Source: a virus
Taxonomy: Duplodnaviria; Heunggongvirae; Uroviricota; Caudoviricetes
DNA length: 7,129 bases
IMG/VR virus record: IMGVR_UViG_2671180543_000002
Direction: 5' to 3' (one strand)
The first letter of the stretch is position 1. Every line of letters starts with the position of its first letter. The position numbers and the translations under genes are program-made. Under the pieces are notes generated by a model that saw nothing but the letters and a program-made list of their open reading frames with translations, did no database searches and was not told the origin of the DNA. Of the stretch, positions 1 to 7,129 are shown piece after piece.

Positions 1-11
1 CAGATGGCTGC

Positions 12-257
12 TTAAAAAAAGAACAAATGGTAGTGTCCGCTATTGCCAGTACACCTCAATTCTTTGGCATTTTTTACCTCGTTACGCGCGTCTGTGGCTT
101 TGCCAACGGATACTTCCGCGTGCGCACGAGTGAACCAGTGCGTGGCAACGTCTTCCTCCACAACATGACGGCCTTTAACAAACTCGCGCCGAGAACCGTC
201 GGGAAGCGTGAGCACAAACGGGGTATGTACGTGTATTACTGCATCATTTTTTGCCAT
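12..257 (-). CDS. Hypothetical phage head-module protein (81 aa), first gene downstream of the major capsid gene; function unknown
   Basis: ORF from the track. ATG at 255..257 (minus sense) is preceded by AAGGA about 7 nt upstream. It is co-oriented with and 41 nt downstream of the capsid gene. The stop at 12..14 sits directly on an A7 run (14..20) at the window edge, so the true 3' end is uncertain. Confidence 0.5.
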   Translation of the reverse strand: MAKNDAVIHVHTPFVLTLPDGSRREFVKGRHVVEEDVATHWFTRAHAEVSVGKATDARNEVKNAKELRCTGNSGHYHLFFF

Positions 258-272
258 CGGGTCATCCTTAAT

Positions 273-289
273 GGCCCCGCCAGGGGGCC
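273..289 (-). promoter_or_regulatory. GC-rich stem-loop (6-bp stem GGCCCC/GGGGCC, 5-nt loop) in the 41-nt spacer after the major capsid stop
   Basis: Seen directly: 273..278 GGCCCC pairs with 284..289 GGGGCC. No U-run follows on the mRNA strand, so it is not a canonical intrinsic terminator; an mRNA-stabilising or attenuating hairpin is more likely. Confidence 0.35.
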
Positions 290-298
290 ATGTGGCTG

Positions 299-1240
299 TT
301 AAATGCCATCAACGTACGAAATGGTTTCTTTGTACACTGGCTCGACTGCACCCAGCTTGCCGTAGTAAGTGACGATCTGATACAGACCGCGATACTGCAC
401 CGGCACGCTCTGAAGCGGAACCAGCGGGTAGCGGACGTATTTTTTATCGTTGGTGTACGCAACTATGCGATCCTTATTCCCCACACCACGGCCTTTCAGC
501 CATTTAACCGCGCGGATATTCAGCGGAACACCGTTCTGGTGATAGCTGATGGTGTTGGTCTGAAGGTTCGTCAACAGGGACTGGTTACCTGCAGATGAAA
601 CGATGATGCTGGACAACAGAGCAAACTGCTCAGGCGGGATCAGCAAATCACGCGGAACCACAGAGTAACCAGAAGCGGCCCACGCATCAGACAGCACCTG
701 GTTAATGCTTGCGCGGATTTCGTCCGGTGTTGAGGTTGCCCACGTTTTGGCAGCGTTGTTGACAGGCACGCCGTCCAGGGTAACAAGGCCTTTCAGGTTT
801 AATGCGGAATCGCCAACATATACCTGTTCATCGTTATCCATCTGCCATTTCAGTTGCATACCGTCATACTTCTGCGTATCAATCGGGCGGCCGACCTGCT
901 GAGCAGCCTGCAATTCTATGACCGTCCAGCCAAGTTCCATCCCCCACAGGTTCAGCGGGTTACCGGATTTGCCGATATCCACGTTCACGCCAGCAATAGC
1001 GGTTGAGTCTTTGCCTACCCAGTTTTTTCCATTCGGATTTGCGCCAGTACCCGCAGCGGCGAAGCTGGTATTCGTCCAGCTGGAAATGTCATCTGCGATG
1101 GAGGCGTCTTCACGCAGTTGAATATCGCGGCTCCAGGTGTACCCCACCAGTGGCAGGTTCAGCGTCTGGTCGAGTCTCTCCAGCTCCCCGATGAGAAAGG
1201 CACCAGAGCTGTCAACGGTTGCCTGATCAAAAGTAATCAT
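299..1240 (-). CDS. Putative major capsid protein (313 aa)
   Basis: Position immediately after protease/scaffold and decoration-like genes in a terminase-portal-MuF-protease operon; size typical of HK97-fold capsid proteins; strong SD (AAGGA) 9 nt upstream of the ATG at 1238..1240. Family assignment is by context and recollection, not by a search. Confidence 0.7.
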   Translation of the reverse strand: MITFDQATVDSSGAFLIGELERLDQTLNLPLVGYTWSRDIQLREDASIADDISSWTNTSFAAAGTGANPNGKNWVGKDSTAIAGVNVDIGKSGNPLNLWGMELGWTVIELQAAQQVGRPIDTQKYDGMQLKWQMDNDEQVYVGDSALNLKGLVTLDGVPVNNAAKTWATSTPDEIRASINQVLSDAWAASGYSVVPRDLLIPPEQFALLSSIIVSSAGNQSLLTNLQTNTISYHQNGVPLNIRAVKWLKGRGVGNKDRIVAYTNDKKYVRYPLVPLQSVPVQYRGLYQIVTYYGKLGAVEPVYKETISYVDGI

Positions 1241-1384
1241 TCGTCTGTTCCTTAAATCTTCCAGGAAATTTCTGCATTGCCGTCAGCATCACCGGCACCT
1301 GTGAATTCAGCGTTGGTCAGCACCACGTTTTTGCCACTGACTGACGTGGACATGAATCCACCCAGAGGCACTTTGATGGATTCA

Positions 1385-1741
1385 TCAGTGGAGATCGCCT
1401 TTTTTGATAGTGCTGGCATCAAAATCAGAACCGAGATTAACGGTCACGTAGCCACGCTTCATGGCGTCGCCCGGGAAGTTCTTGCCTGTTCCCACCTGGC
1501 GAACCATGTCCGGCTGCGACGTGGTCGGATAAGGGCGCACGTAGATCCCCTTCACCTTGTCTGCGGTATCACCATCTGCCAGCGGCACGAAAAAACCGTC
1601 ATCATCGTATTTACCAGCCAGGCCATAGGCAGCGAAGGCGTTATCGGATTTAAGGACCACCGGTTCGACGGTTAAGTCCTGCGGGCGAGAGACAGCCCCG
1701 GCAATGCCAACAGGCATCCGGTACAGAAATACATTATTCAT
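1385..1741 (-). CDS. Small head protein, decoration-like (118 aa as called); probably frameshifted, with the coding frame continuing to 1252
   Basis: ORF from the track, 3 nt downstream of the protease/scaffold stop. An A6 run (1400..1405) lies just before the called stop. A different frame stays open and protein-like to a TAA at 1252..1254 that overlaps the capsid SD. Confidence 0.55.
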   Translation of the reverse strand: MNNVFLYRMPVGIAGAVSRPQDLTVEPVVLKSDNAFAAYGLAGKYDDDGFFVPLADGDTADKVKGIYVRPYPTTSQPDMVRQVGTGKNFPGDAMKRGYVTVNLGSDFDASTIKKGDLH

Positions 1742-1744
1742 TTT

Positions 1745-2413
1745 TTACCCTTTACGGTTTGCCCAGAATTCAGCGTTTTGTTTGTTCAGGGAAGCGATAC
1801 TGGTCATGCCCATGTTTAGGCGCTGTGCATCGCCGGTGGTGGCGCGGGTGTTTCGCCCTTTGGCAACCTCAGACACGGCATTAAACGCCATGTCGACCGA
1901 TTGTTTCGGTAATTTGCGGATATCCGCATCACCGACTATCTGGCGAACCAGCGTTTTGTCAGCAGAAGCCAGAACCTCGCGTTTGAACGCGGTCGGTTTC
2001 ATCTTACGGCTCAGATCGATACCCGGAACGATAACTTCGGCACGCCAGGCTGAGTCACCAGTAATCGTGGTTTCCTCTTCATCGTCCTCGCCGTCACCGG
2101 TCGGATTATCGTCAGGCTTATTATCGTTATCGCCCGTGGCATTTCTTTCCAGCTTAGCCAGCAGGGCTTTCAGTAATGTTTTGAGGTCATCATCACTGTC
2201 GCCGGTTGGATCTCCGCCCATCTCTGGTGCTTTGTCCGGTAGTGGTTGCTGCGGGGACAGGTTGATGTTGAGATTAACGCCCTGCGGCAAATCCCCCTCA
2301 TCTCCTGTAACCGATGCGGGAGCCGACTCCACCAGTTCGTTCATGGTGTCGGCATCTCCTGTCTTGATGGCCGCACGCATGCGGTTCCACCAGTTTTTCT
2401 TTTGATTTGCCAT
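1745..2413 (-). CDS. Candidate nested in-frame scaffold protein (222 aa) initiated at the internal ATG 2411..2413 (Met185 of the protease ORF)
   Basis: Internal in-frame ATG preceded on the mRNA strand by GGAGACAGAGACACA (GGAG about 11 nt upstream); it falls exactly where the N-terminal domain ends and the acidic region begins. Inference by analogy to Mu I/Z and lambda C/Nu3. Confidence 0.3.
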   Translation of the reverse strand: MANQKKNWWNRMRAAIKTGDADTMNELVESAPASVTGDEGDLPQGVNLNINLSPQQPLPDKAPEMGGDPTGDSDDDLKTLLKALLAKLERNATGDNDNKPDDNPTGDGEDDEEETTITGDSAWRAEVIVPGIDLSRKMKPTAFKREVLASADKTLVRQIVGDADIRKLPKQSVDMAFNAVSEVAKGRNTRATTGDAQRLNMGMTSIASLNKQNAEFWANRKG

Positions 2414-2965
2414 TGTGTCTCTGTCTCCAATTGCACAACGATTTCCGGCTCTGCCTTTAGGGACAAGAGCCACATGGTTTCCGGTAATATCGACCTGCTC
2501 GGCTTTACCTGGCTCGGTCTGCTCGTACTCCGCGTCATAGCCGCACGACACTTCGCGCAGGCCATCTTCGATAAGCTGAATGGCGCTTTCGTCTTTGACG
2601 ATAAGGTCAGCCAGCATCAAATCAGACTGCTCACCCGTCCCGCGCCGGACATTCTGGAGGTGCCCGACAGCAAGCACTTTCCAGTTCTCGGGATTTACCA
2701 GCCGCACATTCCCGTTTTCATCTTCAGGATGCAGGATCGTGATGCTCATCCCTTCGAATGAGGCAAGCGTGGCCGGATGGAATACCTGCTCAGGAGAACG
2801 CGTGACGACTATTTCAACGAACTTATCGGGTTTCAGTTTTGGCAGGTCATCAGCACCATAGAGCTGCTTACCTGTTCGTCCTATCGGCACGTCTTTGCAC
2901 AGCAACGAGCCGTCAGCCAGGCGGTATCGGGTTTCCCCGAGCCTGGTCTCAAAAAAGTATTTCAT
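1745..2965 (-). CDS. Putative prohead protease / scaffolding protein (406 aa): N-terminal globular domain, acidic low-complexity linker, C-terminal scaffold-like region
   Basis: Position between the MuF-like gene and the capsid gene; strongly acidic D/E/G/T-rich stretch (roughly residues 200..300) typical of scaffold proteins; architecture analogous to Mu I/Z or lambda C/Nu3. Confidence 0.65.
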   Translation of the reverse strand: MKYFFETRLGETRYRLADGSLLCKDVPIGRTGKQLYGADDLPKLKPDKFVEIVVTRSPEQVFHPATLASFEGMSITILHPEDENGNVRLVNPENWKVLAVGHLQNVRRGTGEQSDLMLADLIVKDESAIQLIEDGLREVSCGYDAEYEQTEPGKAEQVDITGNHVALVPKGRAGNRCAIGDRDTMANQKKNWWNRMRAAIKTGDADTMNELVESAPASVTGDEGDLPQGVNLNINLSPQQPLPDKAPEMGGDPTGDSDDDLKTLLKALLAKLERNATGDNDNKPDDNPTGDGEDDEEETTITGDSAWRAEVIVPGIDLSRKMKPTAFKREVLASADKTLVRQIVGDADIRKLPKQSVDMAFNAVSEVAKGRNTRATTGDAQRLNMGMTSIASLNKQNAEFWANRKG

Positions 2966-2968
2966 GGG

Positions 2969-3751
2969 TTATGCTGCCCTTTTCATTGCGAATGGAACGC
3001 GAACAAACACGATCTCTTTATAGCAGCGGCAGTTTGGCAGCTCGCCCGCGTGGCCGGTCATGCCGTCCAAAGTTGGAGGTGAATCCCAGCGGACGAATTT
3101 ACCTTTCATGTGATCGTGGGAATCTCGGACATCGCCATCATCGGCTGTACGCCAAATATAACCATCCGAGCCAATAGCTATCGCTCGGGCCATATCCAGC
3201 GCGCCCGTTGCTCTTCCCAGTTCCGTTCGGGCAATCAGATCGGCCCTAGACTTAGCAACATCGCCGGTAGATGCAATCTCTTTAGCAAACTGCTCCGCCC
3301 GACCACCGGTGACAACAGCCTCTATCGCTTTGTTCTGGATGTCGTACACCCTGTCTGCGGCCTCGAGAGGCAGAGATTTGATGTACTTGACCTGTTCGGC
3401 GATGATGGATTGCATCACCTGGCCCACAGGAGCGCTTTCCACAAGATTGCGGAGCTCGCGACTGATGTTCTTGCTGTGTTGCCGCCAAACTTTCTCGTTC
3501 TGCCGGGTTAGGTCCGCAGTAAAGTTTTCCGCGACCTTTGTCGCCCAGGGGGTGATGATTTCACTGTAACGCTCCAGCGCCGCAATAATTTCCGTGATAC
3601 TGTCATTTGAACCATCGTAGCGACCATTTACGATGTCTCCGACCGCCCTCGCTATCCTGCGTAGGCTGGTTCGATACCGGATTTCCGCCTGACGGCTCCT
3701 GCGGTTCGTCATCAGGTTCGCCGATGCCGGGCGGCGCTTCATCTTCGGCAT
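2969..3751 (-). CDS. Phage head morphogenesis protein, Mu F / SPP1 gp7-like (260 aa)
   Basis: C-terminal region contains ...WRTADDGDVRDSHDHMKGKF...GELPNCRCYKE..., matching my recollection of the conserved VR..H and CRC signature of Mu F-like domains; located between portal and protease. GAGGA SD 8 nt upstream of the ATG at 3749..3751. The start overlaps the portal 3' end by 149 nt. Confidence 0.8.
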   Translation of the reverse strand: MPKMKRRPASANLMTNRRSRQAEIRYRTSLRRIARAVGDIVNGRYDGSNDSITEIIAALERYSEIITPWATKVAENFTADLTRQNEKVWRQHSKNISRELRNLVESAPVGQVMQSIIAEQVKYIKSLPLEAADRVYDIQNKAIEAVVTGGRAEQFAKEIASTGDVAKSRADLIARTELGRATGALDMARAIAIGSDGYIWRTADDGDVRDSHDHMKGKFVRWDSPPTLDGMTGHAGELPNCRCYKEIVFVRVPFAMKRAA

Positions 3752-5069
3752 TCTCGATGTCCTCGTTGGTAATGGATGCCCCTATGCCGGTTACGTCAGA
3801 ATTTTCTCGCAAATCAGTCATAGCGGCTTTCAGTGTCATCAGACCATCACCCAGCGCCGTACTGATTGCGTTGGTGGTGTTTAACGCCACCGTTGAGCGA
3901 TCGACATCAGACATTTGCCAGAGCGGGTTAAACTCAAACGTGAAATCGTCCGGCAGCGGCTTGCCAAGTTCCGAACGATGCATGATGTCCAGTATCCGCC
4001 GCACCGGAAGACGTAAACGCCTCTCCTGCAACGAACTGATGCGATCGTAATAGTTGGCAAGGTCTGCATCACCGGTAGAAAATCCTTTCGGGGACTGTCC
4101 GAACAACCGCACCAGTGGGATACCAACAGCGCCACTAATCTGTTCTGCAAACTGCGAAAGGATGTCATCCAGACCACTGAAGCTGTACTGATGGGTTTCA
4201 AACTTATCCCGCGAGTCCATGAGCGTCATGCCTTCATTACTCTGGAACTGTCGAATCAGGTCGATATTCTTCAGCAACGCTTCATACGCAGGACCACCAA
4301 GTGCGATAAGCTCGCGTAGCTTCTCCACGCTGTAGGTACGCAAATGCGCCTTGTAGACCAGCTGCGCCGCGCCGACAGTAGCGCTGTCGAACGCGGTAAG
4401 ACGATCCCAGATACGCTCTACAACCGACATTCCCCATTCGTTCTCGGTCATCTTCTGCTGAAATGGCAACGTGACGCCATCAAAGCGAATCAGGCGACTG
4501 TGATGAATGCGCCAGGCAGGAATTCCCGTTGCTGTGGTCACCACATCGTAAAACTCAGGTTTACCCAGGTCCGGCCCCATATCTTTAATGCGGCGGGTCA
4601 GTGCCGGGTCGACCATCCAGCGGTCGAGCGGGAGAATCCCCTTAAACTTGCCCTTACCGATGGTTTCGGGTCGCAGCGGGGTCATTGGTGCCTGCCCCTC
4701 AATCATGATGAAACCCACCGCGCCGCCGTAGAGGCGCGACCATTTCAGCACGTCATTCAGCGCATCCCAGATTTGCAACTCATCCAGTTGTGATTCGAGA
4801 ATGCCACGATCTTTTGCATCAATTTCCGAAGTGATGCGAATGCCTTTGCGGGTCATATCATCCGGGATAGCATCGACTGCTTCGCCGATGATCCAGGATG
4901 AACGATAGGACCATTCCACCAGCATGCGGTTACGACTGGTGAAATTAGCCCGGTAGGTGGATGCTGAGTGCTGGTTAGGTGTCTGCATCCCTACTCGGGC
5001 AATAAAATTCTCATAACCATCAGCTGTGGCCTGCACAGTTCGCCGCAGGGCTTGTTTGTTTCGTGCCAT
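3603..5069 (-). CDS. Putative phage portal protein (488 aa) with an acidic, proline-rich C-terminal tail
   Basis: Size and position directly downstream of, and translationally coupled to, the terminase large subunit (ATGA overlap at 5067..5071) and upstream of the MuF-like gene. Family inferred from context. Confidence 0.7.
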   Translation of the reverse strand: MARNKQALRRTVQATADGYENFIARVGMQTPNQHSASTYRANFTSRNRMLVEWSYRSSWIIGEAVDAIPDDMTRKGIRITSEIDAKDRGILESQLDELQIWDALNDVLKWSRLYGGAVGFIMIEGQAPMTPLRPETIGKGKFKGILPLDRWMVDPALTRRIKDMGPDLGKPEFYDVVTTATGIPAWRIHHSRLIRFDGVTLPFQQKMTENEWGMSVVERIWDRLTAFDSATVGAAQLVYKAHLRTYSVEKLRELIALGGPAYEALLKNIDLIRQFQSNEGMTLMDSRDKFETHQYSFSGLDDILSQFAEQISGAVGIPLVRLFGQSPKGFSTGDADLANYYDRISSLQERRLRLPVRRILDIMHRSELGKPLPDDFTFEFNPLWQMSDVDRSTVALNTTNAISTALGDGLMTLKAAMTDLRENSDVTGIGASITNEDIENAEDEAPPGIGEPDDEPQEPSGGNPVSNQPTQDSEGGRRHRKWSLRWFK

Positions 5070-5801
5070 CAGGCCTGTCTCCCCAGCTGTTCCCAGATAT
5101 CCAGCGATGTATCGATTGGCGCGAAGGCCATAATGAATGCATCAGCAACGTTTGGTGACGGTATCTCGCGTTTTGCGAGGTCTTTTTTACTTTCGACCAT
5201 CACACGTCCGTTACGGTCGAAATCACGATGAGGTGTTGTCAGTTCCAGTTTCAGCTTTTCAAGCAACGGACAACGAGAATCTATGCTGATCAGCTCATCC
5301 ACAGGATACTGTTCTCCGTTGTTAATGGCGTTAAACGTATTTCTGAAACGGTCAGCCACCATGCCTGAGCCTTAAGATTTGCGAAAAAGTCTTTGTTGGG
5401 GATGCCGTTGTACTCGTCATCTGGCTCATGCACACCAGCACCGGCGTTAAACCTCTGGTAATTCACACGTCGCGCGTATGCGTTCTCGCTCTTCCGGTCA
5501 GCGTTAATTTCAGAGAATTTAGCACCGGCAGACGCACCAACACCGATAGAGTCGTAAACAATATCTGCTTCACGCTCCAGCGCCGCCTGATAAGTACGCT
5601 GGCAGCTCTTCAGTAATTCATCTTCTTTGGCCTTCCATTCGTCGGCCCAGAAAACAACGGATCCGTGACGGTAAACGTTAGCGCACTTATCTGTACCACT
5701 GTCAGCCACGTCAAAGCCAATACGCTTTCTTCCACTGGGTTCGAAATTTAACGTTTTGTGCGCATCCACTGCGGCTTCTATCCAAGACAGTTTGATGATT
5801 G
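5069..5801 (-). pseudogene. Terminase large subunit, 3' half only (nuclease domain), with an internal frameshift near 5350..5362 and 5' truncation at 5802 by an IS2 end
   Basis: ORF 5290..5829 contains ...RIGFDVADSGTDKCANV..., resembling the RNase H-like nuclease motif of terminase large subunits. ORF 5069..5362, in another frame, looks like the terminase C-terminal end (...ESKKDLAKR..SPNVADAFIMAF). The first 9 codons of the 5290..5829 ORF (MSGNIGANP) are read out of the IS2 terminal repeat. The ATPase half is absent. Confidence 0.8.
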
Positions 5802-5860
5802 CTGGATTTGCCCCTATATTTCCAGACATCTGTTATCACTTAACCCATTACAAGCCCGCT
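5802..5860 (+). mobile_element. Terminal 59 bp of an IS2-like (IS3 family) element, outermost end at 5802, running into the N gap
   Basis: TGGATTTGCCCCTATATTTCCAGACATCTGTTATCACTTAACCCATTACAAGCCCGCT is identical to 6942..7000 and matches my memory of the IS2 right terminal inverted repeat. Confidence 0.75.
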
Positions 5861-5870
5861 NNNNNNNNNN
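5861..5870. other. Run of 10 N: assembly/scaffold gap of unknown true length
   Basis: Literal n characters in the sequence. Confidence 0.99.
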
Positions 5871-6941
5871 AACACCAAAGGCGATGCCATGATTGGCGTC
5901 AAGCAGCCTTTACCAAAAGCAGTTTTAAGAACTCAGCATGACAAAAATAAAGAAGCAATAAGTATCCTGGATTTTGGTGTTATTGATGATGGTGTGACAG
6001 ATAATTACCAGGCAATACAAAATGCTATAGATGCCGTTGCTTCACTACCCTCCGGCGGGGAGCTGTTTATCCCTGCGAGCAACCAAGCGGTGGGGTATAT
6101 TGTTGGATCCACTTTGCTTATTCCTGGCGGTGTTAACATCAGAGGAGTTGGTAAGGCATCGCAACTCCGAGCAAAAAGCGGACTTACAGGATCTGTGTTA
6201 AGGCTGTCTTATGATTCAGACACTATCGGCCGTTATCTGAGAAATATACGAGTAACTGGTAATAACACCTGCAATGGTATTGACACAAACATTACAGCAG
6301 AAGACTCTGTCATCAGACAGGTTTATGGCTGGGTATTTGATAATGTAATGGTGAATGAAGTTGAAACCGCATTATTTAATGCAAGGGCTCTGGCACTCAA
6401 AATTTATAGCATGTCAGGCTGGAACCTGTAGAGTCGGTCTTCACTTTTTAGGCCAGTGCGTAAGTGTTAGTGTCAGCTCCTGCCATTTCAGCAGAGGAAA
6501 TTATTCTGCTGATGAAAGCTTTGGCATCAGGATTCAGCCTCAAACGTATGCGTGGTCGTCAGAGGCAGTTAGGTCAGAAGCAATAATTTTAGACAGTGAG
6601 ACCATGTGCATTGGTTTTAAAAATGCCGTCTATGTTCATGATTGCCTTGATTTGCATATGGAACAACTGGATTTAGATTATTGCGGCTCAACAGGCGTGG
6701 TTATAGAGAATGTAAACGGAGGATTTTCTTTCTCAAACTCATGGATAGCAGCAGATGCCGATGGCACTGAACAATTTACGGGGATATATTTTAGAACGCC
6801 GGCCTCAACGCAGTCACATAAAATTGTCAGTGGTGTTCATATCAACACTGCAAACAAAAACACGGCTGCAAACAATCAAAGTATAGCGATAGAACAGTCG
6901 GCGATCTTCGTCTTTGTAAGTGGTTGTACGTTAACTGGTGA
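5871..6941 (+). pseudogene. Right-handed beta-helix, pectate-lyase-like protein (possible glycan depolymerase or tailspike-type enzyme); frameshifted between 6355 and 6431 and 3'-truncated by the IS2 end at 6942; 5' end may lie in the gap
   Basis: N-terminal ...ISILDFGVIDDGVTDNYQAIQNAIDAVASLPSGGELFIPAS... resembles the signature start of pectate-lyase-3-type beta-helix domains. The reading frame is open from 5871 (ATG at 5889). Two overlapping ORFs in different frames (5889..6431 and 6355..). Everything after 6941 in the second ORF is IS2 sequence. Low GC compared with the phage genes. Confidence 0.55.
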
Positions 6942-7129
6942 TGGATTTGCCCCTATATTTCCAGACATCTGTTATCACTTAACCCATTACAAGCCCGCTG
7001 CCGCAGATATTCCCGTGGCGAGCGATAACCCAGCGCACTATGCGGATGCCATTCGTTATAATGCTCGACCGCCTCTGCAAGGTTCTTTGCTGCCGTTAAC
7101 CCGTCTGGTTTGGGCATGATACTGATGTA
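6942..7129 (-). mobile_element. IS2-like element, right end (partial; the element continues past the window end), with its terminal inverted repeat starting at 6942
   Basis: Same terminal sequence as at 5802..5860, here continuing into the transposase coding sequence. Confidence 0.8.
6953..7129 (-). CDS. insD: IS2 / IS3-family transposase OrfB, 3' end only (5' part outside the window)
   Basis: Minus-strand translation ...[54 protein letters not shown], stop at 6953..6955; the HYNE..HSALGY..P motif is typical of IS3-family integrase C-termini. Confidence 0.7.

Follow-up and report, generated by a model that had tools for sequence, protein, structure and literature searches.

Intact tailspikes of the Sf6 type are homotrimers. 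Each has a head-binding domain at the N-terminus, a right-handed parallel beta-helix for binding and cleavage of the Shigella flexneri O-antigen, and a C-terminal domain. For phage Sf6 itself, the tailspike protein (TSP) is described as a trimeric endorhamnosidase of the parallel beta-helix type, its active site lying between subunits, and E366A/D399A as the mutant in which hydrolysis is abolished (in passages of PMC6116271 that cite Muller et al. 2008). The published numbering of Sf6 TSP omits Met1; the offset was checked on six published mutant positions. The attP of the Sf101/2851 type has the 13-bp core CGTAATCGTGAAA (PMC4159516). The Sf101 authors reported that 8 of 10 S. flexneri genomes have an Sf101-like int close to sbcB, and proposed IS-mediated mobilisation of oacB from sbcB-located prophages (PMC4159516). 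The cusCFBA operon is non-functional in S. flexneri, which has been attributed to IS insertion (PMC6393483). A literature search on tailspike, cusB and S. flexneri in combination found no paper.

The DNA analysed here (the window) is one entire NCBI scaffold of 7,129 nt, made from two contigs. An earlier reading of the same DNA, made without database searches (the sequence-only reading), had drawn attention to 5871..6941 as a low-GC gene for a beta-helix polysaccharide enzyme, inactivated twice and lying next to a phage head module. The region was compared with intact phage genes, with finished S. flexneri chromosomes and with other assemblies, and is described below in relation to the Sf6 and Sf101/2851 systems.

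Organization of the window

The first contig opens with an IS600 end (1..58) and carries a phage head module on the minus strand (299..5802), made up of major capsid (PF09950), cement/minor capsid, DUF2213, Mu F-like and portal (PF06381) genes and the C-terminal part of the large terminase. It closes with the first 58 nt of the right end (IRR side; 5803..5860, minus strand) of an IS2 copy inserted in the terminase large-subunit gene. Between the two contigs is the scaffold gap, a run of 10 N (5861..5870). The second contig holds the fragment under study (5871..6941, plus strand), followed by the first 188 nt of an IS2 right end (6942..7129, minus strand) that cuts the tailspike gene after codon 488 and contains the C-terminus of the IS2 transposase (6953..7117, minus strand). 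Both IS2 ends have the same orientation, 5803..5860 being identical to 6942..6999, and 6942..7129 was 99.5% identical to elements annotated 'IS3-like element IS2 family transposase'; IS2 had previously been placed at 6942, and the element's end begins exactly there. Rfam and tRNA scans of the whole window were empty.

The tailspike fragment

The fragment corresponds to nt 394-1463, codons 132-488, of a 623-codon Sf6-type tailspike endorhamnosidase gene. Aligned to Sf6 gene 14 (14112..15181), it was 99.5% identical at the DNA level, and its translation after repair of the reading frame equalled gp14 residues 132-487 except for T442A (355 of 356 residues). Searched against known structures, the repaired translation matched the crystal and cryo-EM structures of the Sf6 tailspike (2VBE, 2VBK, 2VBM, 4URR and 7SG7) over all 356 residues with E~1e-239. 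In a megablast search of 5,426 complete E. coli genomes there was a single match, at 99.6% identity, in E. coli CFSAN061762, the only one of these genomes with an Sf6-type receptor domain. The matching gene, of 1,872 nt and annotated 'phage tailspike protein', closes a complete P22-like virion cluster, and alignment to this intact gene revealed three substitutions and one inserted base across 5871..6941. Its product (WP_116335596.1) differs from the relic in being complete at 623 aa and in belonging to a full P22-like virion module, followed by an acyltransferase gene, at the bio/ybhB locus. The intact homologue matched PDB 7SG7 over residues 1-623 and 2VBE, 2VBK, 2VBM and 4URR over 110-623; Pfam placed Head_binding (PF09008) at 1-113 and Tailspike_C (PF21519) at 552-623, both outside the fragment, which spans most of the parallel beta-helix receptor-binding and catalytic domain. 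Judged by this degree of sequence identity, 5871..6941 is a broken internal piece of an Sf6-type O-antigen endorhamnosidase tailspike gene.

The 180-aa open reading frame within the fragment (5889..6431) scored 30.1 bits with PF12708 ('pectate lyase-like'; gathering cut-off 27), while the full-length homologue scored 25.1 bits, slightly under that cut-off. The relic belongs to the same fold class as PF12708 enzymes and the AlgE4 C5-epimerase (2PYG) and has in common with them the motif capping the helix at its N-terminal end, ILDFGVxDDGVTDNxxAIQNAI. Similarity to the pectate-lyase superfamily and AlgE4 is only distant (E~1e-5 to 1e-7 over ~80-105 residues), and the ancestral substrate and catalytic arrangement of the relic are those of Sf6 TSP and not of pectate lyases. 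An origin as a pectate-lyase or glycan-locus gene of the chromosome, or as a capsule depolymerase, would explain the PF12708 match and the weak matches to alginate C5-epimerases; set against the near-identity to Sf6 gp14 along the whole fragment, and against intact homologues that have a P22 head-binding domain and end P22-like tail gene clusters, such an origin has next to no probability. The candidate of a chromosomal glycan locus or capsule depolymerase was accordingly rejected, the sequence being essentially that of the Sf6 O-antigen endorhamnosidase gene.

These results uphold the sequence-only reading in its call of a beta-helix polysaccharide enzyme (PF12708 above cut-off, Sf6 tailspike structures at E=1e-239), and so in the pectate-lyase-type similarity on which it had staked that call. 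They also uphold one of its options, the remnant of a receptor-binding phage gene, which can now be named as an Sf6-type tailspike at 99.5% DNA identity. Its other options, a capsule-degrading gene or a surface-polysaccharide locus, are excluded by the near-identity to the Sf6 endorhamnosidase gene. Of the checks it had proposed, the protein search of the repaired frame led to the Sf6 TSP structures (E=1e-239, 356 residues), and the comparison with intact orthologues gave the O-antigen as the substrate class and a phage tail cluster as the native gene context.

The GC content was 43.0% in the fragment versus 53.1% in the head module, and hand counts of about 33% and 60% in two 60-nt segments were exact when recomputed (33.3% and 60%). 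Low GC had been taken to indicate an origin different from that of the phage head genes. The difference in origin was borne out (an Sf6-type tailspike versus the head module of a SEN34-like prophage); the low GC is no sign of a non-phage origin, since it is normal for a tsp gene within its own phage (Sf6 genome, 47.5%; Sf6 gene 14, 44%).

Lesions and residual reading frames

Relative to Sf6 gp14, the relic retains the same part of the right-handed parallel beta-helix domain (residues 132-487, one substitution) and the codons of both catalytic residues, Glu366 (GAA, 6577..6579, plus strand; codon 367) and Asp399 (6676..6678, plus strand; codon 400), each downstream of the frameshift. It differs from gp14 in several respects. 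The 5' 393 nt (codons 1-131), encoding the head-binding domain (PF09008; residues 1-113) and linker, are absent, and the sequence starts at codon 132 directly after the N run. At the other end IS2 cuts it off at codon 488, so that it lacks the final 135 residues and with them the C-terminal domain PF21519 that completes the trimer. An inserted A at 6371 shifts the reading frame by +1 after codon 297 (GCTTATTT -> GCATTATTT in the alignment to the intact gene). Finally, the relic is flanked by IS elements, whereas the Sf6 gene is flanked by genes 13 and oac. An uninterrupted reading frame is thus absent, given the extra A and the truncation at both ends. The extra A is no read error, since all the finished S. 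flexneri genomes that were compared have it.

The gene is inactivated in at least three ways: by 5' truncation, frameshift and 3' truncation. Two of these had been recognized from the sequence alone, the frameshift being placed in 6355..6431, where it proves to be the single extra A at 6371, and the IS2 cut; the count of two inactivations stood in these respects and failed in overlooking the 5' truncation. The supposed N-terminal motif was likewise misplaced, as the ATG at 5889 is the internal Met139 of the 623-codon gene. On the evidence of its lesions, the relic is a pseudogene derived from a member of the Sf6 tailspike family and is predicted to be non-functional. Being without a start, a head-binding domain and a C-terminal part, and frameshifted as well, it would be unable to mount on a virion or to assemble the active site of the trimer, and it is expected neither to bind O-antigen nor to act as an endorhamnosidase.

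The 180-aa frame on the plus strand (5889..6431), from Met139 to an out-of-frame stop, is a product of truncation and frameshift. It carries the database names 'bacteriophage protein', 'Pectate lyase superfamily protein' and 'glycosyl hydrolase family 28-related protein', and the exact frameshifted product was present in 969 index blocks of the assembly collection and on at least 1000 contigs. A 246-aa frame (6379..7119, plus strand) follows the native tailspike frame from Met301 and reads through into IS2; its exact product was recorded on only one contig, 7,129 nt long. For the 254-aa frame 6355..7119, exact matching gave no hit, because gene callers begin that frame at 6379.

Other truncated Sf6-type tailspike alleles occur in Shigella and E. 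coli. One (P0018; 529 aa, 32 contigs) opens by read-through from IS629 near codon 100; another (P0020; 406 aa, 11 contigs) is uncut by IS2 at codon 488 and shares T442A. Independent truncated alleles of this kind fit an ongoing decay of Sf6-type prophages in S. flexneri.

The locus in finished genomes

Each of the 10 finished S. flexneri chromosomes inspected has the relic within its copper/silver efflux operon, in the arrangement cusS cusR cusC cusF cusB'-insert-'cusB cusA pheP. The relic is carried by most S. flexneri genomes, and 2457T (AE014073.1) is among the many finished chromosomes with the exact 180-aa product. The window was colinear with 2457T and the other finished loci over 5871..7129 with one base different (7069), and the tailspike/IS2 junction at 6942 was the same in all 10 loci. 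An exact scan for this junction in a contig collection that probably holds one genome per species found none. The base at 7069 is C instead of the A found in all 10 finished loci; it is inside IS2, 128 nt into the element and 60 nt before the contig end, and may derive from another IS2 copy pulled in by the assembler.

Compared with an uninterrupted E. coli cusB, the S. flexneri gene has a clean break at one point, with an insert of 4,448 nt (2457T, locus L011, 8138..12585) and no loss of cusB sequence. In the 10 finished chromosomes the order of the insert is attL-int'-IS629-'tsp'-IS2-attR, its parts being a 538-nt arm that includes the first 324 nt of int, an IS629 (identity confirmed), 1,075 nt of tailspike gene, IS2 and a 201-nt arm. 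The 538-nt left arm was 99.6% identical to the integrase end of sbcB-adjacent prophages in ~580 E. coli genomes, 98.5-98.7% identical to the int/attP region of phage Sf101 and 99.4% to Stx phage 2851. The 201-nt right arm matched the opposite prophage end, beside dacD, in ~536 genomes and was 91.7% identical to Sf101 DNA just before attP. In Sf101 these arms adjoin, with the attP core as their overlap. An origin of the int stub from Sf6 itself was rejected at 28% identity to Sf6 Int.

At the break, cusB reads CGTGGTAGCGAAA, which matches the Sf101/2851 core at 9 of 13 positions. Both attP arms are joined to host DNA at the 13-bp core in the native locus (2457T, L011), outside the window; the junction sequences are AACGTGGTCGCGAAAGAGGAAGG and GCGCGTAATCGCGAATTCAGGG, the left junction having the hybrid core CGTGGTCGCGAAA|GAGG and the right one CGTAATCGCGAA|TTCAGG. 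The junctions were also checked for IS termini with target-site duplications and are not of that type. The Sf101 layout, tailspike(+) - oacB(-) - attP - int(+), implies the prophage order attL-int(+)...tailspike(+)...attR, and the int and tailspike remnants in cusB have the same order and orientation. The relic thus resembles the Sf101/2851 module in its bracketing attP arms (98.5% and 91.7%) and in this order. It differs in its integration site, cusB in place of sbcB, and the tailspike of Sf101 diverges from the Sf6 type after the head-binding domain, the receptor domains being unrelated at the DNA level. No part of the Sf101/2851 integration module is inside the window.

The sbcB-dacD prophage of E. 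coli ET776 (L024, 1..14900) was considered as an intact tailspike carrier and rejected as uninformative, being a 14-kb defective mosaic with baseplate genes. It has the same integrase/att module, and an exo-alpha-sialidase gene beside attR, and illustrates how phages with unrelated tail types share one integration module.

The head module and the scaffold join

The head module was 95% identical to vB_EcoM-689R2-type phages and ~82% to Salmonella phage SEN34; by these similarities it is assigned to a SEN34-like/vB_EcoM-type, myovirus-type prophage unrelated to the P22-like tailspike phage. Positions 1..5860 were 100% identical to the finished chromosome CP058589.1, where the IS2 runs on to its full length and gives way to the N-terminal half of the terminase. 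The terminase gene of finished S. flexneri chromosomes is split by a complete IS2, beyond which lies the N-terminal half (Terminase_3), not a tailspike.

In S. flexneri the head module is itself an IS-riddled relic. The C-terminal terminase part (5069..5829, minus strand) is also frameshifted, with 179-aa and 97-aa frames overlapping at 5290..5362; this frameshift is not universal, as CP026810.1 (L016) has a single 255-aa terminase frame. CP026765.1 (L014) has an extra IS3-family element in the DUF2213 head gene (12887..14335), continuing the IS-driven decay. Beyond IS600 lie Mu-type transposase genes (HTH_Tnp_Mu, DDE_2, Mu-transpos_C), which suggest a second decayed element abutting the head module.

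Colinearity of the left part of the window with finished genomes ended at 5860, and that of the right part resumed at 5871 at a distant locus. In three finished S. flexneri chromosomes carrying both loci, relic and head module were 209.9, 214.5 and 179.9 kb apart, and the relic was upstream of the head module in the window's orientation, opposite to the order in the window. At both ends, the first contig stops exactly 58 nt inside an IS element (IS600 on its left, IS2 on its right), as is typical of short-read contigs that break at repeated sequence. The second begins 4 nt inside the relic, without IS629 sequence, which is unusual for the end of a de Bruijn contig; in other draft assemblies the relic was found on ~1.25-kb contigs reading in from IS629. 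When relic and head module were examined as parts of the same prophage, an N gap and an IS2 end lay between them and they belonged to different phage lineages. The adjacency is most likely a scaffolding artefact joining two contigs, the scaffolder's join having possibly been caused by IS2 sequence on both. The description of the gene as next to a phage head module therefore holds only across the N gap.

Discussion

Considered jointly, the observations very probably describe a dead Sf6-type tailspike relic of a prophage that had integrated in cusB and was gutted by IS elements, its adjacency to the head module being artefactual. The history would have begun with a P22-like prophage (Lederbergvirus-type temperate podovirus) combining an Sf6-type tailspike with an Sf101/2851-type integrase in an ancestor of the S. 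flexneri strains compared. The hybrid att cores at both cusB junctions argue that this prophage entered a secondary attachment site inside cusB, a step that we infer from the finished genomes. Insertions of IS629 and IS2 with adjacent deletions would then have removed nearly all of it; the order of the IS insertions relative to the deletions we likewise infer. The residue would consist of attL with 324 nt of int, IS629, 1,075 nt of tailspike gene, IS2 and 201 nt beside attR. In the window, IS629 would be missing as the true left neighbour, and the fragment would have been joined by 10 N to an unrelated prophage contig. None of the sequenced phages in the collection combines an Sf101/2851-type integrase with an Sf6-type receptor domain; the parental mosaic phage is postulated.

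Two elements of this account could be replaced by IS-mediated movement. With respect to the window, the fragment might truly lie beside the head module in the source strain through a rearrangement: Shigella genomes are IS-rich and rearranged, both loci have IS2 in the same orientation, and in 9 of the 969 index blocks the relic is on a contig of 5-10 kb. Recombination between the two IS2 copies would, however, join tsp'-IS2 to the N-terminal terminase half and would not link terminase-C/IS2 to the left (IS629) end of the relic, and homologous IS2-IS2 recombination was rejected as the cause, as the order and orientation in finished genomes would not yield the junction. Since the join itself is an N run, the exact junction product occurs on one contig only and the loci are ~200 kb apart in three finished chromosomes, such a rearrangement is unlikely. 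With respect to cusB, the IS629-'tsp'-IS2 unit might have arrived as a composite transposon or by another IS-mediated translocation, for example from an sbcB prophage, as its two bounding IS elements, the mobilisation proposed for oacB and the frequency of Sf101-like int near sbcB would allow. The outermost sequences of the insert are attP arms meeting cusB at hybrid 13-bp cores, not IS ends; no cusB sequence was lost, and the int and tsp remnants retain prophage order and orientation. Arrival by translocation is on these grounds distinctly unlikely, and slightly more so than the rearrangement.

A different question is whether the truncated frame has been kept for some residual role, e.g. as an O-antigen-binding decoy or in superinfection exclusion. 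Its conservation with the exact frameshift in at least 1000 contigs, together with the intact catalytic codons, might be read in that way. Recent common descent predicts the same conservation, with 99.9% nucleotide identity across genomes that extends to the IS parts, and the conservation of the relic in S. flexneri is attributed to recent common ancestry because the IS parts are equally conserved. The relic also has no native promoter, start, head-binding domain or C-terminal domain; the active site requires a trimer, and other independent truncated alleles exist, as decay predicts. A retained function is therefore highly improbable. Under the preferred account of prophage integration followed by IS-driven loss, the silencing of cusCFBA probably had the integration into cusB as its primary event, with the gutting by IS629 and IS2 coming later. 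Such a prophage origin is a refinement of the published account in which the operon was inactivated by IS insertion.

For the interpretation of draft genomes, the window illustrates that an N run and IS ends in a scaffold can produce false gene neighbourhoods, that a tailspike beside head genes is here not to be taken as one prophage, and that truncated relics give open reading frames whose first Met resembles a true N-terminus. For biology the finding matters little. The Sf6 tailspike is a textbook enzyme, and the relic is already known as a pseudogene fragment of this structurally characterized protein, with annotations on at least 1000 Shigella contigs. As a small side result, the inactivation of the Cus copper/silver efflux operon in S. 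flexneri can be described more cleanly, as probable prophage integration at a secondary att site followed by IS-driven decay. If the proposed history is true, the tailspike relic would be a widely shared fossil of the integration into cusB and of early predation on S. flexneri by phages of the Sf6 type.
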